Below, piece after piece: positions 5,578 through 22,490 of a stretch of DNA of 32,000 bases (position 1 is its first letter; the number at the start of each line of letters is the position of its first letter). The translations under genes and the position numbers were made by a program. Below the pieces are notes generated by a model, which saw only the letters and a program-made list of their open reading frames with translations, ran no database searches and was not told the origin of the DNA. The stretch comes from Pirellula staleyi DSM 6068. GTDB lineage: Bacteria > Planctomycetota > Planctomycetia > Pirellulales > Pirellulaceae. The stretch spans positions 930,001 to 962,000 of the forward strand of contig CP001848.1 in NCBI GenBank assembly GCA_000025185.1, in the 5' to 3' direction.

Positions 5578-6894
5578 TTACGATTTGCTCTTGATCGCTG
5601 GTGGTGCGACCAGGTCTTGATCCATCCGCTCGACGTCTGGCACTTCCAGTTCACCCTCGGTCGCAAAGATGCGATACGACAGCATCAGGGGGTGGCTCTT
5701 GTCGAGGGTGTATTCGAAATAGCTGCCGAAGCGAGCGTAGTTGCGTTCGCTGAAGCGCGACTCCTTGGGGTTGCTTGTGTGGTCGAGATAGCAGACCGTG
5801 TAGCGCTGCTCGCCGACGACAAAACTAACGGCATTCCAAGGCAAATTGACGTGTTCCTTTTGCGCTGGCCAGTTGCGAAAGCTGCCTGGTTTGTCCTTGC
5901 CATCGGGGCGGAGGTAGTAGGTTTTGTCGGCGGTTTTATCAGGCACCGCTTGAGTGGCGCGGAACTGAAAACCGGCATGCTGCGGATCGCCGTCGAGCTT
6001 GATCTCCCCTTCAACTTCACTCTTCAGGAGCGAAGCGAATTCGACCAGTGTGCCGCCTGCGACGTTGTAGACCGTGAACTCGCGCTCTTCGCGAGCGAAC
6101 ACAGCACCATCTTGTCCGTGCCAGGCAATCTCGACCGTATGACGACCCATCACCGGTCCAGCTTCGATGCTCAAAAACTTCTCGTGCGACTGAAACTCAC
6201 CCTTGTTGCAGTGCCAGGTGTCGGCCTTTTTGTTTTCGCCGTAGCTGATGCGATTGAAGCCAAAAAACATGCCGCGATGATGCGGGAAAAGTCCCCCGGG
6301 ACCTTTCGTCAGCAGCACTTTGCCAGCGGGATCGTAGAGGTGGTGATAGGGCTTGAACGTTTCCGATCGCTTTTCTTTAGTCGACTCATCGAGCGCAGCA
6401 TACATGTAACGCAGCACTGGTCGATCGCCGAACGAAAGTTCGCTGTACTGGCCGGCGGTATCGGTCCATTTGAATGAGGGTTCCGACTTCGCAGCATCGC
6501 TCGCAATCGTGGCGGTGTAGGTTGCGGTGGCACCCTTGGCGAGCGCTGGCACGACGAAGTGCAGCTGCGCGTGAAAGTTGCCCGCTTGCAGTTTCATCAT
6601 CGGCGAGCGCAGACCACGCAAGCTCAGCTGACCGGTGATCTTGTTCCCTTTGTCGTCGGCAATAGCGACTGGTGCGCCCGCTTCAGCAGCGGCGCGAAAC
6701 GCATCGGGAAGCACAATATCGATCGACACCGGCGTTTGCTTACGCTCGCTCTCCCCCGCCGAAACGACGTAGGTTTCGGTCGTCACTTCCGCCCCGAGAT
6801 CTTGCACGAAAAGGAGCGTCGCCATGCAGCAGCCGAGAGCGCTGACCAGCGTGCGCCACCCACTCACGCGTCCGAACCAACCATCAATAGCCAT
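5578..6894 (-). CDS. PmoA-family (DUF6807-like) secreted protein
   Basis: Signal-peptide-like N-terminus. The block KPYHHLYDPAGKVLLTKGPGGLFPHHRGMFFGFNRISYG...ADTWHC resembles the DUF6807/PmoA family common in Planctomycetota and Verrucomicrobiota. Recognised by eye only. Confidence 0.6.
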   Translation of the reverse strand: MAIDGWFGRVSGWRTLVSALGCCMATLLFVQDLGAEVTTETYVVSAGESERKQTPVSIDIVLPDAFRAAAEAGAPVAIADDKGNKITGQLSLRGLRSPMMKLQAGNFHAQLHFVVPALAKGATATYTATIASDAAKSEPSFKWTDTAGQYSELSFGDRPVLRYMYAALDESTKEKRSETFKPYHHLYDPAGKVLLTKGPGGLFPHHRGMFFGFNRISYGENKKADTWHCNKGEFQSHEKFLSIEAGPVMGRHTVEIAWHGQDGAVFAREEREFTVYNVAGGTLVEFASLLKSEVEGEIKLDGDPQHAGFQFRATQAVPDKTADKTYYLRPDGKDKPGSFRNWPAQKEHVNLPWNAVSFVVGEQRYTVCYLDHTSNPKESRFSERNYARFGSYFEYTLDKSHPLMLSYRIFATEGELEVPDVERMDQDLVAPPAIKSKS

Positions 6895-11082: not shown

Positions 11083-13842
11083 TCACTCAGGAGCAAACGC
11101 GCGCTCGATACCGCCGCGCGCGGCAATTGCGCGATCGATTTGCGCGATGATCTCGAGCGTGCGCTCAAGCGCCCCGAGCAGCTGCTGATAATGCACTTGA
11201 TCGCTGCGCGTGAGCGTTCGCCCACGACGATCGGCGAGCCACTTTTGCGCGGGGGCATGCGCGCCAATGCGATACTCAAACACCTCGCGCGAGCAGCATG
11301 CCATCGACCGCTCGGCGCTCACCAAGACCTGCCCCGCGCTCCACTTCGGATAGCGCGGCTGAGTAACCAGCCCTTCACCAGCAGTAGTGAACTCCGGCGC
11401 AGCGTGCCGCAGCAGATGCACGTCGATCAGCTGCCGGCCGAGCGTCGTCAGCTCGAGCGCCAGGTCCGCTTCTCGCGGCACGATCACGCGCGGAAATTCG
11501 CGCCACAACGACTCCGCAAAACCTTGTCGATACGCGCTCGAAGCCAGCGTGGCATACAGTAGCGCCAGGCAAGCTGCCTCGTCACCATGCTCGCTCCCGC
11601 CGATCCCCAGGCGCGTCATTTTTTCGCGTATTTCACTCGAAATATTACCTTTTTTCGAGGGGACCCCTGCGGCAAACCGCCAGAGTGGAAAGAGCGATTC
11701 GCTCCCCCGGTTGTCGCTCCGCAGGATTCCATCGAGCGTGATGGCGTCGGTGATCCAGAAGAAATTCGCCGCGCGACCCGGCAGCATTTGCCGCCGCGAA
11801 ACGAGGAGCCAGTTCGTTTGATCGATCACGTGCCGCATCAGTTCGCCGCGCGGCCAATCGATGAGCAGCGGATGCCAAAACAGATAGCGCGAGTCGAAAG
11901 GTCGATACGCACAGCGGCGGACATAGCGCGCGAGATCGATCCCCTGCTCTACTTCGGCGCGCAGCGCTGCGCGAACTGCGGCGAGCTTGAAGCTCCGCGT
12001 ATCTCCTGCTGGATAGCGCGGCGAACGTGGCCGCGCGAAGAGAAGCGTTCGCAGCTCGTCGTCGCTCGCGCGCTCATCGACCAGCATCCCGATTCGCGTT
12101 AGCAACTCTTCCTCGGTGAAGGCAATCACCAGCCCATCTCGGGCGGTCACCACGGCAGTGCTGGTGAGCGGCATCACTTCGGTGAGAAGTGGCGCCTGGC
12201 GATACCAGGCATTGGATACCAGGTCCTTTGGCGAGCGAAACGGATAGTCGCTTCCGGCAGGGTGGAGTAGTTCTCCTGGCGTGCCGCGCTCCACCTGCTG
12301 CTCGAACGCCGCGAGCTTTTCGTCCACCGTTCCCCAGTAATCGAAGCGGCGCACGGCAGGCGCAAGCCCCGCGCGCGAGCGCAAAAAGAACGCGCCGATC
12401 CCCGCATCGAGTCCAAAGATGTTTTCGTTCGAGGCCATCTGCTCACGAAGCGAAATGGGCTGTTTTTCTAGCGTTTTAGAGATTTTTTCTGGTAGCTGCG
12501 GCGCAAGCTCGCCACTCTTGCGATTGCCATGAAAGTCGGCAATCTCGATTCGCGGAAACGTGTGATGAAGTCGCCGCCGCGCGAGGCGAAACGTTGTGTT
12601 CTCGAGCCAGCTATGGCTGGTCACCAGCGCCACGACCCCGAGCCCCGCGCGCTCGATGCACCACTCGGCGAGTCGCAAAAATTTAACGTAGTCGTCGTGC
12701 AGCCAGGTCTTCCGCTCGCCGAGTCGCTCGCCATCGAACTTCAGATAATCGCGCACTCGTTGCGTGATCCACTCGCCTCGATTTTGCGAGAGCGAAGCAA
12801 ACGGCGGATTCCCGAGAATCACCGTCAGCGGCTCGGCGTGCAGCCATCGTCCGTCGTCGGCAGGACCCTCGAGCGCACTGGCGGTGACGATCGGAAGTCC
12901 CACCGGCGAGGTGAAACGATAACCGGTCCGCGCCAGCAGATCGACGATCCGCAGCGCCATCACCGCCGACGCTTCGGGGAAGAGTTCCACCGCCGCTAGT
13001 CGCGGGAGCAAATGCCGATCGATGTAGTCGTTCCACGCCTCGAGCGGCGCTCTGCCACACGCTTCCGCCTCGGCGATCACCGACTTATGAATCCGCGCGA
13101 TTGCGGCGAGCAAGAACGCGCCGCTCCCTGCCGCTGGGTCGAGTATCCGGACCACCGGACCCGTAAAACCGTGCGGATTTCCCTGGGAATACGTGTTCCA
13201 GCAGGTTGTGTCGGCAAGTCCACCCGGGAGCTCCAGCTCATCGCGCAGCAGTTGATCGACGCGCTCGACCATCGCCGTAGCGAGCCGCTCGGGGGTAAAG
13301 AAAACGCCTCGAAACTTGCGGTGCGCTGGGGACCAGGCGGCCAGCAGCAGTTCCCACAAATGGGGCCGCTCGTGCTCTGCAATCATCGCCGCGGAGCGCG
13401 CCAGAAGCTGCCAGTTTGCATCGTCGCGCGCCAGACCGCGGCGCAGCTGACTCGCCACGTGCGCGAGCCAGGGCGGCGACGTCTCTGCGAGCCACGCCAG
13501 GGCCCGATCAACATAGTGCGGCACCACAGCTGGCCACTGCAAGCGCGCTAGCACCACGATGGTGGCCAGCTTCTCGGTGAGCGCATCGCTCGCGCGCAGA
13601 TCGGTGGCAAGATCAGCTGCGGGGGTCACGCTGGCGAGACTCGCGAGCGCTTCGTCTACAGCGATTTCCCCCTGCAGCGACGCCTGGCTCAGCGCCTGCG
13701 CCACACCATCGCGCAGCGGTAGAAGTTCACTCGCGAGGCGGCGAATCGCGGCGGTCGTTCTCACGCACCTTGACCCAGCGGCAGCAATTTCGGCGTCACA
13801 TGCTCGGTCACAATTGCGCCGAACAGCGTGTGCGGTGCGCAC
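11083..13842 (-). CDS. N6-adenine DNA methyltransferase, type ISP/IIG-like MTase + C-terminal specificity domain, no nuclease or helicase domain
   Basis: FRGVFFTPERLATAMV (motif X-like), ILDPAAGSGAFLLAA (motif I; D codon at 13140) and VILGNPPFAS (motif IV NPPF, 12810-12799), in gamma-class order. The C-terminal VFEYRIGAHAPAQKWLADRRGRTLT...HYQQLLGALERTLEIIAQID resembles the C-terminal domain of type ISP enzymes such as LlaGI/LlaBIII. The start is uncertain: ATG 13842 overlaps miaB by 82 nt, while GTG 13764 would give a GTGA overlap with the miaB stop. Confidence 0.8.
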   Translation of the reverse strand: MRTAHAVRRNCDRACDAEIAAAGSRCVRTTAAIRRLASELLPLRDGVAQALSQASLQGEIAVDEALASLASVTPAADLATDLRASDALTEKLATIVVLARLQWPAVVPHYVDRALAWLAETSPPWLAHVASQLRRGLARDDANWQLLARSAAMIAEHERPHLWELLLAAWSPAHRKFRGVFFTPERLATAMVERVDQLLRDELELPGGLADTTCWNTYSQGNPHGFTGPVVRILDPAAGSGAFLLAAIARIHKSVIAEAEACGRAPLEAWNDYIDRHLLPRLAAVELFPEASAVMALRIVDLLARTGYRFTSPVGLPIVTASALEGPADDGRWLHAEPLTVILGNPPFASLSQNRGEWITQRVRDYLKFDGERLGERKTWLHDDYVKFLRLAEWCIERAGLGVVALVTSHSWLENTTFRLARRRLHHTFPRIEIADFHGNRKSGELAPQLPEKISKTLEKQPISLREQMASNENIFGLDAGIGAFFLRSRAGLAPAVRRFDYWGTVDEKLAAFEQQVERGTPGELLHPAGSDYPFRSPKDLVSNAWYRQAPLLTEVMPLTSTAVVTARDGLVIAFTEEELLTRIGMLVDERASDDELRTLLFARPRSPRYPAGDTRSFKLAAVRAALRAEVEQGIDLARYVRRCAYRPFDSRYLFWHPLLIDWPRGELMRHVIDQTNWLLVSRRQMLPGRAANFFWITDAITLDGILRSDNRGSESLFPLWRFAAGVPSKKGNISSEIREKMTRLGIGGSEHGDEAACLALLYATLASSAYRQGFAESLWREFPRVIVPREADLALELTTLGRQLIDVHLLRHAAPEFTTAGEGLVTQPRYPKWSAGQVLVSAERSMACCSREVFEYRIGAHAPAQKWLADRRGRTLTRSDQVHYQQLLGALERTLEIIAQIDRAIAARGGIERAFAPE

Positions 13843-16049: not shown

Positions 16050-16180
16050 ACCGCCATTTTACTTATCCACCCCCGCGTCGAACAGGACGCCCCACCCTCG
16101 CAACCCAACGTAAAAAACTTGCTGCTGAGTCGGGGGGGTGGCACAATTTGCCCCCAGTGTGAGGCGATCTGACTTTGCCC

Positions 16181-16232
16181 GGGTGGCACTGCTAACTTGC
16201 CTGGGTGGCACTGCTGGCTTGCCCAGCAGTGT
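16181..16232 (-). repeat. Composite repeat core, two tandem inverted-orientation copies, the second forming a perfect hairpin
   Basis: GGGTGGCACTGCTAACTTGCC, then TGGGTGGCACTGCTGGCTTGCCCAGCAGTG, which is the reverse complement of the core CACTGCTGGGCAAGCCAGCAGTGCCACCC. 16209-16231 is a 9-bp stem (CACTGCTGG/CCAGCAGTG) with a 5-nt loop. Confidence 0.8.
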
Positions 16233-16284
16233 GATCCACTAACCACCTGCCCACTTCTCTCCCTGTCTTCCAAGGAACCGATCG

Positions 16285-16845
16285 ATGCAGCCGATCCATG
16301 CCACTGCTCAGCTCAACCTGCGGATGCAGCCTCTCGACCGGGGCGACCTGTTTGAAGATCCCCTGATGGAAGAGTTGGAGAGCCAGGAACTCGGGGAGGT
16401 GACCGGCGGCGGCACGATGATGCAGGAGTCGGGCGAGATCGACTACTGCGATATCGAGCTGGAGCTGAGCGACATCGAGCGCGCCGTTCCGCTGGTCTGT
16501 CAATTCCTGGAAGAGCGTGGGGTGCCACGCGGATCGAAACTCACCTACCACGTCGGGGAAACGGCGCACGAAGTCCCCTTCGGCCGGATGGAAGGTTTGG
16601 CGATCTACCTCAACGGCACCGACCTCCCCGAGGAGGTCTACAGCGAGTGCGACATCAACTTTGTCTTCGACGAGATCAATCGGCTGATCGAAGGCCGCGG
16701 CGCGATCCTCGGCCACTGGCAAGGCCCGACCGAAACAGCCCTCTACATGTACGGCACATCGGCCGCCGCCATGCGCGAAGCCATCACCCCCTTCGTCGCC
16801 GAATATCCCCTCTGCCAGCAATCCCGCTTCGCCCAAATCGCCTAG
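16285..16845 (+). CDS. Hypothetical acidic cytoplasmic protein
   Basis: GC3-rich codon usage on the + strand; the antisense ORF 16192..16836 is a shadow. No family recognised. Alternative start at 16324 (MQPLDRG). Confidence 0.55.
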   Translation: MQPIHATAQLNLRMQPLDRGDLFEDPLMEELESQELGEVTGGGTMMQESGEIDYCDIELELSDIERAVPLVCQFLEERGVPRGSKLTYHVGETAHEVPFGRMEGLAIYLNGTDLPEEVYSECDINFVFDEINRLIEGRGAILGHWQGPTETALYMYGTSAAAMREAITPFVAEYPLCQQSRFAQIA

Positions 16846-17052
16846 TGCAATAGAGAACTGTAAGCACCCTCGCCGAAACCGAACTGCAGAGATCTCAGAG
16901 AATCTTCGTATGCAGCAAACATCGCAACGAACGAATCACAGAGAGTTCAAGTACTTATTCAGATTTCTACACGACCTAACAACCAAAAGAACTGACACGC
17001 TTACACTAATGAAAATCTCACACACACCTTCCCTGAGAAGGCATAAAGACAC

Positions 17053-17081
17053 TTGACATTACGACCCTAACCAAAAACAAT
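17053..17081 (+). promoter_or_regulatory. Putative sigma70-type promoter for the islet operon
   Basis: TTGACA (17053-17058), a 17-nt spacer, then AACAAT (17076-17081), about 80 nt upstream of ATG 17159. The -10 matches only 4/6 and planctomycete promoter rules are poorly known. Confidence 0.3.
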
Positions 17082-17158
17082 CCGCTTGATACGTAGCTCC
17101 CGGCTGATTCAGCCTCCTCCAAATCAACTTACACCTAGCCAACCACGTACTGAATCAT

Positions 17159-17995
17159 ATGGCAACTATTGAATATAGCCTGTTTCGAATAAAGTTTATC
17201 CGACCATCACAGCAATCGTTTCTGTACACAGAACTTACACCCCAAGAAGTCTTTAAAATCTCACTCAAAGAGAGACCATCCATTCAACTGTCAGGCGGTA
17301 GAACATGGCACATTGGAAATGTACAAGACTACGATTCAAAAAACGGATACTTTGCGTTCGGAAGAACGTCTAAAACAACCAACACTACGTTCGACGATTC
17401 GACTGGAAACTTCGTAGAGAAGGACTTTGAAACTAGTCCGTATACTCACGTAGTGTTCAATTCCACAATAGGAATCTTAGGAATTGCGCACAATCACCGT
17501 CTTGGTCGCAGCTCCGTATCAATATCAGCGAAGCTAGAACGTGCGTTCGAAGCGACTTCAGTAGTAACCCAGAATAATATTGAGGTGGTCATTGCTCCGA
17601 TTTCTGACCCGGAAGGATTCCTCAAGACAGTACTCAACGCCTATCGCATCCTGAAATTCACTGCACACTTCACGGGTCCAAATCCATTTGATGCCGACGA
17701 ATTCTTTCAGCGACCACTATCTGTCTATGCTTCAACGGCCAACGCAAAGAAGGGTAAAGCAATGATTGCAGGTGAAAGCCTAAACAAAGACGTAGTCGCT
17801 GAAGTTGCACGTAGCACTGCCGCCACTGGCAACAAGGCGACTGCGCAGCTCAAGAAGTACAAGAACCAGGCTCCTGTAACGATTGGACTGACTGAGGAAC
17901 CTATCAAACGACGCTTCGACGAATCGACGCACGACCCTCAAATAGTCATCAGTGAACTTAAATCATTATACGACCAGGTGAGGCACAATGATTGA
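17159..17995 (+). CDS. Uncharacterised 278-aa protein, first gene of the islet operon
   Basis: Only long ORF in this region. AT-rich codon usage shared with the downstream gene. Its stop overlaps the next ATG (ATGATTGA). No signal peptide, TM helix or catalytic motif that I recognise. Lys/Ala-rich segment near the C-terminus (ANAKKGKAMIAG...ATAQLKKYKNQ). Confidence 0.7.
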   Translation: MATIEYSLFRIKFIRPSQQSFLYTELTPQEVFKISLKERPSIQLSGGRTWHIGNVQDYDSKNGYFAFGRTSKTTNTTFDDSTGNFVEKDFETSPYTHVVFNSTIGILGIAHNHRLGRSSVSISAKLERAFEATSVVTQNNIEVVIAPISDPEGFLKTVLNAYRILKFTAHFTGPNPFDADEFFQRPLSVYASTANAKKGKAMIAGESLNKDVVAEVARSTAATGNKATAQLKKYKNQAPVTIGLTEEPIKRRFDESTHDPQIVISELKSLYDQVRHND

Positions 17996-18788
17996 ACATC
18001 ATATAACTGACATTGACGATTTAATTCGGCAACTCAATATGCTTCCGAACAACTTTATTTTTCGTGGGCAGTCAAATGCAGAATGGGACTTAACATCTTC
18101 TCTTGAACGTGCGATTGGAAATAACTGGTCAAAGGATATCTCGAAAAAATGCGAAGACCATTCACTGATTCAATTTCAGTCGAAGTTCCACCTCTACGAC
18201 CGCATCAATGCGCAACCCAATTCTAAGTTGGCATGGCTGGCACTTATGCAGCACCATGGCGTGCCAACCAGACTGGTAGACTTTACGGAAAGCCCCTATG
18301 TCGCTCTCTACTTTGCGCTCGAGAGCTATTTGCCCCATACTAAGAGTGATCTTGCAATATTTGCGATTGATTACTCAGCAGTAATGGAGAAATCGCTTGA
18401 CTTAATACGCTCAATAGACAGTGGCTTTAGTGAAACTCGGGCGACCGTCCATGGAAAACGCGATATGGTATTTCAGGATATTGTCGATCGATTCTCCTAC
18501 GACATACTCTGGATTACTGAGCCATCCCAGCTAAACGCGAGACTTGACCGACAGGCAGGATCCTTTGTACTTTCCGGAAATGGCGGGAGGAAAATCGATA
18601 GCATTATTCGTTCGGACACCTATCAAGGCGCGACAATCATCAAGCTTATCATCTCGCACGAACTTTACAGCGACACTTTTGCGTTGCTACGAAAAATGAA
18701 TATTACAAGCAAGAGTCTCTATGGTGATATTGACGGCCTTGCACGTTCAATTCGCATGGAGATGCAAGTGTACACCGCCCCCATATAA
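17988..18788 (+). CDS. FRG domain-containing protein
   Basis: IFRGQSNAEWDLTSSLER (FRG at 18060-18068), LMQHHGVPTRLVDFTESPYVALYFALE (18249-18323) and NARLDRQAGSFVL (18534-18566) match the three conserved blocks of the FRG domain family (Pfam PF08867). SD-like GGTGAGG lies 6-12 nt upstream of the ATG, inside the upstream gene. Confidence 0.8.
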   Translation: MIEHHITDIDDLIRQLNMLPNNFIFRGQSNAEWDLTSSLERAIGNNWSKDISKKCEDHSLIQFQSKFHLYDRINAQPNSKLAWLALMQHHGVPTRLVDFTESPYVALYFALESYLPHTKSDLAIFAIDYSAVMEKSLDLIRSIDSGFSETRATVHGKRDMVFQDIVDRFSYDILWITEPSQLNARLDRQAGSFVLSGNGGRKIDSIIRSDTYQGATIIKLIISHELYSDTFALLRKMNITSKSLYGDIDGLARSIRMEMQVYTAPI

Positions 18789-18800
18789 GGTATTTAGTCA

Positions 18801-18828
18801 TTAGGTCAGGATACACGCATCCGACAGC
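18801..18828 (-). repeat. REP-like hairpin element, copy 1 at the islet edge
   Basis: TTAGGTCA-GGATACACGCATCC-GACAGC. It shares the TAGGTCA...GACA termini with the reverse complement of 7513-7542 (TGTAGGTCA-GGTACTCCGTACC-TGACAAAG). The interior forms a different hairpin (GGAT/ATCC). Confidence 0.55.
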
Positions 18829-18869
18829 AGTTGAGGCAAAAGAACAAGGCACGAACGCCATCTAACAAC

Positions 18870-18900
18870 TTAGGTCACGATCCCTCTCAGGGGAGGACAA
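18870..18900 (-). repeat. REP-like hairpin element, copy 2 at the islet edge
   Basis: TTAGGTCACGATCCCTCTCAGGGGAGGACAA. Its reverse complement TTGTCCTCCCCTGAGAGGGATCGTGACCTAA aligns closely with 18990-19021. Confidence 0.7.
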
Positions 18901-18989
18901 TGCTACTTGGAGATCGCGATGTTACTTCAAGCGGAAATCAAGTAGCGGCTGGAAGCAAGGGAGCTGATTGAAGATAGCTCGGCGAGGCG

Positions 18990-19026
18990 TTGTCAGGTCC
19001 CTGAGAGGGGACCATGACCTACAAGA
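18990..19026 (+). repeat. REP-like hairpin element, copy 3 (opposite orientation), immediately downstream of glpD
   Basis: TTGTCAGGTCCCTGAGAGGGGACCATGACCTACAAG. It has the same termini (TTGTCAGGT ... TGACCTACAAGA) as 7513-7544 but a different internal stem (GGTCCC/GGGACC). Confidence 0.75.
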
Positions 19027-19068
19027 CTATCGAGGACAGTATGGCCGGTGCAGCCGGCCCGACGATGG

Positions 19069-20703
19069 TCAGTTCGAGGACGATGAGGTTGCTGGTGGCA
19101 GGTAGTGCTGGGCGAGTTCGCGGAATTGGGTGAGTTGGTCGGTGATCCAGGCAGAGTCGTGGGCGAGTTCGCGGGCCAAGAGGGTGGCGACTTGCGGGGC
19201 GATCGCCAGGGAAGCCTGGGCGTCGAGCAAGAGCGAGCGGCTGCGGCGGGAGAGGACATCCTCGACGGTCCGGGCCATTTCGTGGCGGGCGTGGAACACC
19301 ACTTCGGCCGGGGTGAGGGGCAAGCTGGGGCTCAGCGGAGCGCCGAGCGTGGGATCTTGCTCGATCAGTTTTTCGATCGCCGTGGCATCGGCGCCGTAGT
19401 GCGCAAAGGGGGAGGCCGACGGGACATACTGGCCCGGGCTGTCGCAAGCGGGATGCTCGGCTGTGGCTCCCCACAGCGGCAGGTCGCGCGTCAGGCAAGG
19501 CTTGGTCGCCAGGCCACCCACTTTGGCAGCGGTGGTCACCACATCTTCAGCCATGTGGCGATAGGTGGTCCACTTGCCGCCGGTGATGGTCACCAGACCG
19601 CTTAGGTCGGTGAGGATCGTGTGATCGCGGGCCAGCTTCGAGGTGCTCGATCCGCTCCCCGCTTTCACCAAGGGACGAATCCCGGCAAATTGGCTCAGCA
19701 CATCGGCGCGTGTTGGCGGGGTGGCGAGGTAGCTGGCAGCGGTCTCGAGTACAAAATCGATCTCGGCCTCGCTGGCCTGGGGCTCGAGCGGAATGGTATC
19801 GATCGGCGTATCGGTGGTTCCGACAACGACCCGATCTTGCCACGGGATCACGAACAAGATGCGGCCATCGCGAGTGCGGGGGACCATCAAGGCAGTATTG
19901 CCCGGCAGGAATTTGCGGGGCAAGACGAGGTGAATGCCGCGGCTCGGGGCGACAATCACGCTGGCGCTCGGGTCGGCCATGCGGCGTACTCGATCGCAAT
20001 ACGCGCCGGTGGCGCTAATCACCACGCGAGCGCGGGCGGTCGCTTCTTCGCCAGTCTCTTCGTTGACGATCGTCGCGCCGCGAACCTTTCCCGATTCGAT
20101 CAGCAGATCGTCGACCCGGGCGTAGTTCAGCAGCACTGCATCGTGGTAGTCGGCGGTGGTGGCGAGGGTGACGAGCAGCCGCGTGTCGTCGAACTGAGCA
20201 TCGTAGTAGACCACGCCGCCACTCAAATCTTGCTGACGGAGGGTGCTTACTTTTTCAAGCGCCGTCGCGCGCGAAACGATCTCAGTAGCGCCGAGCGAGA
20301 GACTTCCGGCCAGGTACTGATACGCCTTGAGACCAGCGGCGTAGTACGGCTTTTCCCACCACTGGTACGACGGAACGAGGAAGGCGAGCGGCTGCACCAG
20401 ATGCGGGACGCGGCGACACAAAATGCCCCGCTCTTCGAGCGACTCGCTCACCAGCGAGACGTTGCCTTGCGCCAGGTAGCGAACGCCGCCGTGGATCAGT
20501 TTGGTGCTGCGGCTGGAGGTTCCTTTGCCGAAATCGGCCTGCTCGACGAGGAGCGTTTTATAGCCGCGCGACGCCGCATCGACTGCAGCGCCAAGCCCCG
20601 TAGCGCCGCCGCCAATGATCAGCACATCCCATGTGTTTTCCGCGTTTTTCCGGCCATTTCCGGTCAATTTCACGCGGTTCCAATTCGCCTGACGATCGAT
20701 CAT
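19069..20703 (-). CDS. glpD: FAD-dependent glycerol-3-phosphate dehydrogenase
   Basis: [53 protein letters not shown] is the GlpD N-terminal FAD-binding signature. Start taken at ATG 20703, which overlaps the glpK stop (ATGA). Confidence 0.9.
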
Positions 20704-22193
20704 CGAGGTTCTTCCCAACGTTTCGAGCGCTCGACGGCGTCGGCCCAGCGCTGGCGTTTTTCCCAGGCATGCACGCGCGACATGAGCGGCTCGAAGGCGC
20801 GATCGACTTGCCACTGGGCAGCGATATCTTCGCGCGAGGTCCAGAAGCCGGTGGCTAGTCCCGCGAGATACGCAGCGCCGAGCGCCGTGGTCTCGATCAC
20901 CGCAGGACGAACGACACGGACGCCGAGAATATCGGCCTGAAATTGCAGCAGTAAGTTGTTGGCCGAGCCACCTCCATCGACCCGCAGTTCGGCGATCGGC
21001 TCTCTGGCATCAGCGTTCATCGCATCGAGCAGATCGGCAACCTGGAAGGCGATCGATTCGAGCGCCGCGCGGGCGATATGTCCGGCCGAAGTCCCGCGCG
21101 AGATGCCGATCATCAGCCCCCGCGCGTGAGGATCCCAGTGGGGCGCGCCGAGTCCAGCGAGCGCCGGGACGAGATAGAGCCCGCCATTATCTCGCTCGGT
21201 TTGCGCGAGCGATTCGACTTCGCTCGAGCTGCGAATCAGCTTCAGCCCATCGCGCAGCCACTGCACAATCGCGCCGCCGATGAACACGCTCCCCTCGAGC
21301 GCATATTCGAGCGACTCGCCGGTTTGCGCGGCGAGCGTGGTGAGCATTTTGTGCTGCGACATCAGGGCCGCTGTGCCGGTGCTACGGAGCAAGAAACAGC
21401 CGGTTCCGTAGGTGTTTTTCGCCATTCCTGGCCGAACGCACATCTGTCCGAAGAGCGCCGCTTGCTGATCGCCGGCAACACCGCCAATCGGAACTCCGGC
21501 CAGTGGCAAGTGAGGAGCAACTTCGCCATAGACGAGGCTCGACGGTTTGACTTCTGGCAGCATGCTGCGGGGAATCTGGAGCTCGGCCAGAAGCTGATCG
21601 TCCCAGCAGCCGCGCGTGATGTCGTACAGCATCGTGCGCGACGCGTTCGTGACATCGGTGACGTGTAGCTTGCCGTCGGTCAGTTTCCAGAGGAGCCAAG
21701 TATCGATGGTGCCGAAGGCGAGCTCGCCGCGCTCGGCAGCAGCGCGTGCGCCGGGAACATGGTCGAGTATCCAGGCGATTTTGGTTCCCGAGAAATACGA
21801 ATCGATCACGAGCCCTGTTTTCTCGCGCACGATATCGGCGAGCCCGCGCTGCCGCAGCGTTTCGCAAAGAGGCGCGGTGCGACGATCTTGCCACACAATG
21901 GCCGGATAGATCGGCTGACCCGTTTGGCGATTCCACACCACGGTGGTCTCGCGCTGATTGGTGATGCCGATCGCGGCGACATCGGAGGGACGAATTTGCG
22001 CGCGGGCTATCACTTCCGAGACGGTGCCGATTTGCGCCGACCAAATCTCGAGCGGATCGTGCTCGACCCAACCACTCTGGGGATACGACTGCGTGATCTC
22101 GTGCTGCGCGACGGCAACGATCTTCCCCTCGACGTCGAACAAAATGGCGCGAGCGCTGGTGGTTCCTTCATCGAGAGCAAGTACGTAAGGCAT
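20700..22193 (-). CDS. glpK: Glycerol kinase
   Basis: [44 protein letters not shown] and [19 protein letters not shown] are canonical GlpK blocks. Start at the internal ATG 22193. Confidence 0.92.
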
Positions 22194-22490
22194 GCTGCAA
22201 TTCCTCGTGGCCGCAAAGCGTGCGGTGAGCCGAGAGAGAGCTTCCACCGCCACGCCTGATCGTACTGCTTATCTTACAGCAGAACACGCTCGCAGAGCAG
22301 AACATGGTCGCGGAGGTGGACCTAGTTGGTCTCGCAGCAGAACCTAATGGCCTCAGCTGCCCGGGTTCTGGCCGTGAGCGATTTCCCCTCCGGCGAGGTT
22401 CGGGCTACAATCCCCCACGCGCGGCTGCTCGACGCGTCACCGATCGTTTTACCCTCCATCGATTGCCAGCGAGCACCTAAGGAACCGGCT

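Follow-up and report, generated by a model that had tools for sequence, protein, structure and literature searches.

Rex exclusion is among the oldest known phage-defence phenomena, and the trigger and signalling of RexA have been in question since rII exclusion was described. Five Rex-like systems have been described, each with a small RexB-like partner carrying four transmembrane segments (PMC12894663, January 2026), namely lambda RexA/RexB, Gordonia phage CarolAnn gp44/gp43, Mycobacterium phages Sbash gp30/gp31 and Butters gp30/gp31, and Pseudomonas putida PP_5643/5644. Abortive infection is the mode of action of these known systems (PMC6426606, PMC12894663). RexA has RdgC as its sole structural relative and is made up of a globular domain in two parts (residues 1-139 plus 248-279) built around a dimerisation domain (143-234) (PMC11077077). 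Here a two-gene cassette of Pirellula staleyi DSM 6068 is compared with these systems. The cassette, made up of open reading frames (ORFs) 1 and 2, lies in a 32,000-nt stretch of the chromosome (contig CP001848.1, positions 930,001 to 962,000 of the forward strand), which is referred to as the window and to which all coordinates apply. With a rough probability of 0.55, the cassette is an abortive-infection anti-phage module that follows the Rex plan but has, in place of the RexB membrane channel, a soluble effector of the FRG family resembling the ADP-ribosyltransferases (ARTs). The cassette and the islet in which it lies comprise the following features.

17159-17995, forward strand: ORF1 (Psta_0773), 278 amino acids (aa), ATG start, isoelectric point (pI) 8.9; predicted soluble protein of the RexA/RdgC fold.
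17988-18788, forward strand: ORF2, 266 aa, ATG start, pI 6.0; soluble FRG-domain protein.
17977-17995, forward strand: gene junction, with GGTGAGG at 17977-17983, the ORF2 ATG at 17988 and the 8-nt overlap ATGATTGA, which includes the ORF1 stop codon.
16846-19068, no strand: low-GC islet of 2.2 kb with ORF1 and ORF2 as its sole genes, between a hypothetical gene (16285-16845, forward strand) and glpD (19069-20814, reverse strand).
16846-17158, forward strand: AT-rich leader of 313 bp, 5' of ORF1, GC 0.444, with one sigma-70-like promoter candidate.
18789-19068, no strand: spacer of 280 bp from the ORF2 stop to the convergent glpD stop, GC 0.536.

The coordinates of the two genes, their 8-nt overlap and the Shine-Dalgarno-like GGTGAGG, which as read from the sequence stands 4 nt 5' of the ORF2 ATG, had all been given in an initial annotation of this DNA and are borne out. 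ORF1 is 100% identical to Psta_0773. More than 640 homologues of ORF1 (642 matches in a database clustered at 90%) and more than 1300 of ORF2 were found, and both proteins are conserved at 35-70% identity across phyla; these numbers and the cross-phylum conservation indicate that ORF1 and ORF2 are real genes and not chance ORFs. The GC content is 0.42-0.48 across about 16850-19000 compared with about 0.58-0.66 on either side, giving a mean of 0.46 for the islet against 0.58 for the window. Likewise, GC at third codon positions (GC3) is 0.448 in ORF1 and 0.479 in ORF2 against 0.71-0.82 in six neighbours (miaB, panD, the hypothetical gene at 16285-16845, glpD, glpK and a methyltransferase (MTase)-like gene). 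No further credible ORF was found in the islet, where just short antisense ORFs within ORF1 and ORF2 were seen. The islet is thus of foreign composition and, in agreement with the initial annotation, the two genes are its only cargo.

No tRNA gene, Rfam match or integrase was found in the islet, and no terminator-like site was detected in 16700-19200. The promoter-like site (TTGACA-17 nt-AACAAT at 17053-17081) is not significant, with one such site seen where chance would give 3.3. Among the closest relatives the leader shows no conservation, and sequence similarity begins at the ORF1 ATG. A stretch of the leader at 17072-17092, overlapping the promoter-like -10, resembles positions about 5960-5980 of a Novipirellula locus (L002; AACAATCCGCTTGATACG vs AACAATCAACTTGACACG) and could be a shared promoter or operator, or chance. 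An imperfect 21-nt direct repeat (17030-17050 and 18998-19018; 76% identity, exact 9-nt core TCCCTGAGA, spacing 1968 nt) flanks both genes; it was rejected as an insertion scar, as a 9-nt exact match is expected many times by chance in 4 kb.

The two genes form a unit wherever linkage could be read. The comparison was based on 94 loci with an ORF1 homologue, drawn from species-representative genomes, metagenomes and contigs carrying specific homologues. An ORF2 homologue lies immediately 3' of the ORF1 homologue on the same strand in all 90 testable loci, the other four breaking off no more than 114 bp from the ORF1 stop codon and hence being untestable for linkage. The linkage of ORF1 to FRG genes, which the initial annotation had put forward for checking, is therefore conserved. 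When the junctions were recomputed from start and stop codons, the genes overlapped in 76 of the 90 loci (most commonly by 4, 8 or 14 nt) and were separated by a gap of 0-5 nt in 11 more. The pairwise identities of ORF1 and ORF2 are correlated (Mantel r 0.80, permutation p 0.001, 64 unique complete pairs), indicating joint inheritance and divergence of the two genes, with no swapping of partners. No recurrent third gene was found beyond near-identical loci. The hosts belong to at least six phyla and include Planctomycetota, Beta- and Gammaproteobacteria, Desulfobacterota, Acidobacteriota, Myxococcales and a metagenome-assembled genome (MAG) of Clostridia. The distribution of the pair is patchy and horizontal, with no conserved synteny and with insertion sites that vary between loci, none of the 94 sharing the flanks seen in the window.

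ORF1 matched no Pfam, NCBIfam, PADLOC or PHROG model, the RdgC families of Pfam and NCBIfam included, and had been described in the initial annotation as unrecognisable. That description does not survive structural comparison. Clustered at 50%, the ORF1 family has 556 representatives (302 below 1e-30), almost all of ~280 aa, and an AlphaFold2 (AF2) model built with 46 homologues has a predicted local distance difference test score (pLDDT) of 86.8 and a predicted TM-score (pTM) of 0.83. Compared with the Protein Data Bank (PDB) using Foldseek, the model has lambda RexA (8TWQ) as its top match (E 1.1e-6, probability 1.00, 314 aligned columns), followed by RdgC (2OWY, E 5e-4; 2OWL, E 9e-4), with nothing else at E <1e-3. 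In addition, four phage proteins in BFVD match the model with E of 5e-14 to 5e-10 and TM-scores of 0.44-0.57. The model comprises a beta-rich region (1-138), four strands and helices (142-232) and a long C-terminal helix (260-275), an order of elements that mirrors the published domain boundaries of RexA. ORF1 and RexA are also alike in size and charge (278 aa and pI 8.9 vs 279 aa and pI 8.6). On the strength of the model ORF1 is treated as having the RexA/RdgC fold, with no claim that it belongs to the RexA sequence family, and by analogy it is predicted to be a DNA-binding infection sensor or regulator of the pair. ORF1 falls in neither a housekeeping nor a phage-structural family, and where the initial annotation had allowed for either a sensor or an antitoxin-like partner the fold favours the sensor.

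ORF2 is an FRG-domain protein. It matches Pfam FRG (PF08867) over residues 22-116 with an E of 3.7e-28 and 98.7 bits (cut-off 25), and the three FRG-family blocks reported for it in the initial annotation are present. Beyond Pfam, 15 models of the PADLOC candidate PDC-S15 match ORF2, the best being PDLC04937 (E 3.2e-48, residues 11-261 against 25-250 of the 254 profile positions), as does phrog_4962 (E 2e-38). ORF2 has no transmembrane segment, its highest 19-residue hydropathy being 1.15 with no window above 1.6, compared with a maximum of 2.39 and 51 such windows in RexB. The placing of Frg among the ARTs was reportedly introduced by Burroughs and Aravind (J Bacteriol in 2020 and NAR in 2015), whose articles are taken here second-hand. 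According to two papers, the Aravind group placed Frg in the ADP-ribosyltransferase superfamily and predicted it to be an antiviral effector of the NADase type, acting on nicotinamide adenine dinucleotide (NAD+) (PMC9503650, PMC12522546). The earlier statement that FRG has no experimentally assigned function holds in the literature searched and overlooks this published computational assignment.

The AF2 model of ORF2 (pLDDT 83.6) is in keeping with such an assignment in that its three best distinct Foldseek matches in the PDB are all ART toxins (EcPltA, TreTu and TreX), at E values of 0.17-0.5 that are not significant; these matches agree with the ART assignment and fall short of proof. A profile of ORF2 gave chance matches alone against PDB sequences. 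ORF2 was aligned with distant FRG proteins encoded on a Variovorax plasmid and in three phages (a P2-like phage, Salmonella phage SEN8 and one of Acinetobacter), and R26, G27, R41, Q88, H89, G91, T94, R95, L96, D98, T100, Q189, G191 and K219 proved invariant. In the model R26 lies on a strand and T100 at a strand end, with H89 and Q189 also invariant. ORF2 is predicted from its family to be an effector of the ART superfamily, either consuming NAD+ or ADP-ribosylating a target.

Away from P. staleyi the surroundings of the pair are variable and often rich in defence genes. In the Clostridia MAG the pair lies between an AIPR gene and Mrr_N and HD genes, while other loci have an HNH gene nearby, or a HIRAN gene and an integrase. 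In Ralstonia holmesii (L103, 4024-11624) the pair is directly 3' of dnaA-dnaN-gyrB and heads a run of unannotated genes including an SRA/ScoMcrA-type gene, of the kind that restricts modified DNA, such that a variable islet adjoins the replication-origin gene cluster. Among 149 neighbours, crudely called, that lie no more than 1.4 kb from the pair at 67 non-redundant loci, the commonest Pfam families were SMC_N, AAA_23, AAA_15 and AAA_21 ATPases, N6_N4 methylases and Type I specificity subunits, with nSTAND1, RES, Schlafen/AlbA_2, ResIII, integrase core and group II intron maturase also common. The neighbours include SMC/OLD-type ATPases, of the abortive-infection (Abi) type, and Type I restriction-modification (R-M) genes, and matched PADLOC models for MADS, for Type III, II and IIG R-M, for HEC-04 and for NERD+UvrD.

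In Delftia tsuruhatensis and related contigs (L010-L013; for example L010, 6429-9666) a gene for a cI/LexA-like repressor (HTH_3+Peptidase_S24, 216 aa) is situated 5' of the pair on the same strand, together with a gene for a 199-aa protein with no Pfam match. This repressor-like gene was seen 5' of the pair only at the Delftia loci. The arrangement recalls lambda cI-rexA-rexB, and by that analogy the pair may be under DNA-damage-responsive control in this lineage.

More distant FRG genes (identity of 34% or less) were found on 256 plasmids and in temperate phages. In Salmonella phage SEN8 (L098, 2905-3840) the FRG gene is inserted in opposite orientation between gpS and gpV, in Peduovirus P2_2H1 (L097, 320-1684) it follows replication gene A, again in opposite orientation, and in Acinetobacter phages it adjoins the integrase gene. 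The phage FRG genes therefore occupy accessory positions, and the gpS-gpV gap and the site after gene A are what we take to be known defence-cargo hotspots of the P2 phage family. The FRG protein of P2_2H1 is 454 aa long with an N-terminal extension of ~190 aa ahead of the FRG domain. The nearest out-group FRG gene, at 33% identity to ORF2, is carried on plasmid 4 of Variovorax sp. SRS16 (L096, 1760-4271) without an ORF1-like partner. This gene adjoins a MarR regulator gene and a divergent nadC, involved in NAD biosynthesis, a neighbour that may be coincidence and is of note given the NAD+ chemistry predicted for FRG.

Set beside the Rex-like systems, the cassette shares a two-gene operon whose first gene encodes a cytoplasmic RexA/RdgC-fold protein of ~280-370 aa and whose second gene abuts or overlaps the first, the gene order and overlap being like those of rexA-rexB and CarolAnn 44-43 (overlap of 26 nt). 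It differs in that the four-transmembrane RexB-like partner is replaced by a soluble 266-aa FRG protein without a hydrophobic segment, that no similarity in sequence could be detected between ORF1 and RexA (PF15969) or gp44, and that the cassette is chromosomal here whereas Rex systems are prophage-borne and expressed from the lysogen, often with a cI-type repressor. Having no four-transmembrane partner and lying outside the RexA and DUF4747 sequence families, the pair is not a member of RexAB, though it plausibly works like one. No paper linking RexA-like proteins with FRG was found in the literature searched.

Other described systems resemble the pair in part. ORF2 matches the hidden Markov models of PDC-S15 over its full length; however, PDC-S15 is a one-gene candidate, whereas in this clade the coupling of the FRG gene to a RexA-fold gene, for which PADLOC has no model, is obligate. 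In keeping with the initial annotation, the pair therefore corresponds to no named defence system, with ORF2 alone corresponding to this candidate. No experimental characterisation of PDC-S15 was found in the literature searched. RES-Xre and AbiGi/AbiGii are likewise mobile two-gene cassettes with a predicted ART-like enzyme encoded 3' of, and overlapping, the partner gene, and FRG, RES and AbiGi are all listed among the ART-like families (PMC12522546, PMC9503650). RES-Xre combines a RES (PF08808) toxin with an Xre-type helix-turn-helix (HTH) antitoxin, whereas ORF2 is FRG, not RES or AbiGi, and the RexA-fold ORF1 has no HTH or Xre domain. RdgC, the second and third structural match of ORF1, is a dimeric DNA binder of similar size, but it is a vertically inherited housekeeping gene, unlike ORF1, which is scattered horizontally with an FRG partner and matches no RdgC family. 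Dazbog (DzbA/DzbB) is also a two-gene abortive-infection system, in which DzbA carries DUF262 (bioRxiv 10.1101/2022.08.27.505566; PMC10952713). Identity with Dazbog was rejected, as ORF1 has no DUF262 and no PADLOC Dazbog model matches ORF1 or ORF2.

In the mechanism proposed for the cassette, ORF1 would be a cytoplasmic and, by analogy with lambda RexA, probably DNA-binding dimer, which would monitor a phage-induced state of DNA or of DNA-protein complexes, or else one particular phage protein, in the manner of CarolAnn gp44 with Kita gp53. Through the gene overlap and its translational coupling, ORF2 would be made in fixed proportion to ORF1. In the uninfected cell ORF1, presumably through physical interaction, would keep ORF2 inactive or leave it unactivated, and upon infection ORF1 would turn ORF2 on. 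Active ORF2 would then consume NAD+ or ADP-ribosylate an essential target, stopping both cell and phage and giving phage resistance. More widely, RexA-fold proteins may constitute a portable infection-sensor module wired to unrelated effectors, the RexB channel in prophages and the FRG enzyme in chromosomes, a generalisation that is offered tentatively and to which we would not give even odds.

A number of observations weigh against a Rex-plan module with an FRG effector. In the case of ORF1 the link to RexA is structural alone, with sequence methods silent. The global TM-score of the ORF1 model to 8TWQ is just 0.32, a low value that is tentatively attributed to a different domain orientation. 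In hhalign comparisons a 122-member ORF1 family gave probabilities of <1% with lambda RexA, a 25-member RexA alignment and CarolAnn gp44, and ORF1 matched neither RexA PF15969 nor DUF4747 PF15931 at E up to 1. A profile of the 46 ORF1 homologues was also negative against PDB sequences. DUF4747 is the most recurrent Pfam match within the ORF1 family, yet a faint one, seen in four of the 122 diverse members with a best E of 0.002, and hmmscan of ORF1-family members bearing precomputed PF15931 flags was negative. According to published HHpred results, the same domain is present in RexA, CarolAnn gp44, Sbash gp30 and Butters gp30 (PMC6426606, PMC7542560); since neither lambda RexA nor CarolAnn gp44 reaches DUF4747 by hmmscan, the published link is likewise one at the level of HHpred.

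In the case of ORF2, no experimental work on any FRG protein, whether on defence, toxicity, NAD+ turnover or DNA binding, was found in the literature searched, and structure matches at E 0.17 or worse leave classical ART catalysis unproven for the modelled protein. No acidic residue is invariant across the distant FRG proteins, E178 being kept just within the ORF1-linked clade, such that the catalytic glutamate of a classical R-S-E or H-Y-E triad is not evident in FRG. The neighbourhood is as expected of defence-island cargo, a descriptive pattern taken without a matched statistical control, while in the window itself the immediate flanks are housekeeping genes (miaB, panD and glpD) with no defence island. 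No ORF1 homologue was found in 72,556 plasmids, 50,697 phage records or viral contigs.

The same features have been weighed against three other explanations. The cassette could be a plain toxin-antitoxin pair, ORF2 being an ART-like toxin and ORF1 an antitoxin that binds it without any sensing role, with the whole a selfish element for which phage defence is incidental at most. The tight overlap with the putative neutraliser gene first, the strict co-inheritance and co-divergence of the genes and the horizontal spread of a minimal two-gene unit without regulators would all suit such a pair, and an ART-superfamily toxin with an upstream antitoxin is an established pattern, as in RES-Xre (for RES as an ART, PMC12522546). 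How FRG genes behave on their own can be argued both ways, as single-gene FRG subfamilies imply that an FRG enzyme generally needs no activating partner, whereas the FRG genes that stand alone in phages and on plasmids point to enzymes under their own control, for which no antidote would be obligatory. ORF1, however, at 278 aa is larger than the presumed toxin and has a two-domain RexA/RdgC fold of DNA-binding type in place of a small HTH, ribbon-helix-helix or other typical antitoxin fold; it is better conserved than ORF2 along its whole length, with no disordered labile region, and the pair is absent from the plasmids searched, where addiction modules are usually common. Taken together these points make a toxin-antitoxin pair unlikely, if still to be taken seriously.

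Alternatively the roles may be reversed, with ORF1 as an effector that blocks phage or host DNA transactions in the way RdgC does with RecA, and the FRG protein regulating it, modifying it (for instance by ADP-ribosylation) or sequestering it. There is precedent in Butters gp30/gp31, where the cytosolic RexA-like protein is the effector and is restrained by its partner (PMC12894663, PMC7542560); the action of RexA on the lambda switch does not depend on RexB, and functions of RecA are inhibited by RdgC (PMC11077077), and the lack of an invariant catalytic glutamate in FRG would also fit. Nevertheless FRG genes stand alone in phage accessory slots and on plasmids and make up a single-gene PADLOC candidate, which argues that FRG itself carries the effector activity, and the dense invariant polar residues of FRG are typical of an enzyme active site, so that a reversal of roles seems highly improbable. 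We give the least credence to a pair with no part in conflict, for example one in which an RdgC-like modulator of recombination would serve DNA repair or stress signalling together with an enzyme that ADP-ribosylates or that processes ADP-ribose. The matches of ORF1 to the recombination-associated RdgC, the housekeeping surroundings at several loci (miaB, panD and glpD here, dnaA-dnaN-gyrB in Ralstonia) and the out-group FRG gene beside nadC on the Variovorax plasmid are in its favour, but patchy horizontal spread, foreign composition and absence of synteny are unlike housekeeping repair genes, ORF1 lies outside the RdgC Pfam family, R-M, Abi, STAND and integrase genes recur as neighbours and FRG genes occupy phage accessory slots. 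The abortive-infection module on the Rex plan is thus preferred, and the proposal of the initial annotation that this is a horizontally acquired, tightly coupled two-gene cassette and a candidate for defence of the abortive-infection type is supported as far as computation reaches.

Within the window no phage genes were found flanking the cassette and no cI-type repressor adjoins it. Two further features had been used in the initial annotation to place the cassette in a defence-like context, as an orphan restriction-type MTase and a repeat hotspot.

11083-13842, reverse strand: Type IIG restriction endonuclease (REase)-MTase-like protein, 918 aa, its C-terminal specificity domain being of Type ISP (Pfam E 3e-63).
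16175-16224, no strand: tandem repeat of 22 nt x 2.3 copies (TTGCCCGGGTGGCACTGCTAAC, 85% match) in the spacer between panD and the hypothetical gene, ~0.9 kb 5' of the pair.

The first is indeed a restriction-type gene and the only other defence-type gene in the window, but it resembles a Type IIG REase-MTase and lies 3.3 kb from the pair with three genes (miaB, panD and the native hypothetical gene) in between. It matches PADLOC Type IIG models over their C-terminal half alone (557-1061 of 1096) and from its sequence looks like an MTase and specificity module without the N-terminal nuclease part. As called, this ORF shares 82 nt with the 3' end of miaB, for which reason its true start is probably further downstream. 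The supposed hotspot amounts to the single tandem repeat, which makes a weak argument. With housekeeping genes as the immediate flanks, the case made earlier from local context is a weak one.

A 16-nt inverted repeat adjoins the tandem repeat, the whole feature spanning 16175-16238. The hypothetical gene directly 5' of the islet (16285-16845, forward strand) encodes 186 aa, is of native composition (GC3 0.82) and its product matches nothing in Pfam or PADLOC. Nearly all of it is also covered by an ORF of 214 aa running the other way (16192-16836), and either strand could code. On the other side of the islet, calling glpD and glpK (20700-22253, reverse strand) from their earliest possible start codons makes them overlap by 115 nt. 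The flavin adenine dinucleotide (FAD)-binding domain of GlpD begins at residue 62 after a long N-terminus, which suggests that the real start of glpD is downstream of the GTG call.

If the Rex-plan reading of the cassette is right, the constant pairing of a RexA-fold family with a soluble enzyme predicted to use NAD+ would demonstrate the modularity of the sensor. Membrane partners are hard to study, and a soluble enzymatic output would provide a direct biochemical read-out, tractable in vitro, of what RexA-type sensors detect. It would likewise give the widespread FRG domain (PF08867, PDC-S15) its first function or mechanistic context. The ORF1-FRG pair would then be a defence system so far without a name, present in at least six phyla, and defence-annotation tools, which now see half of it, would gain a compact system of two genes that ranges from Planctomycetota to Betaproteobacteria and Clostridia.

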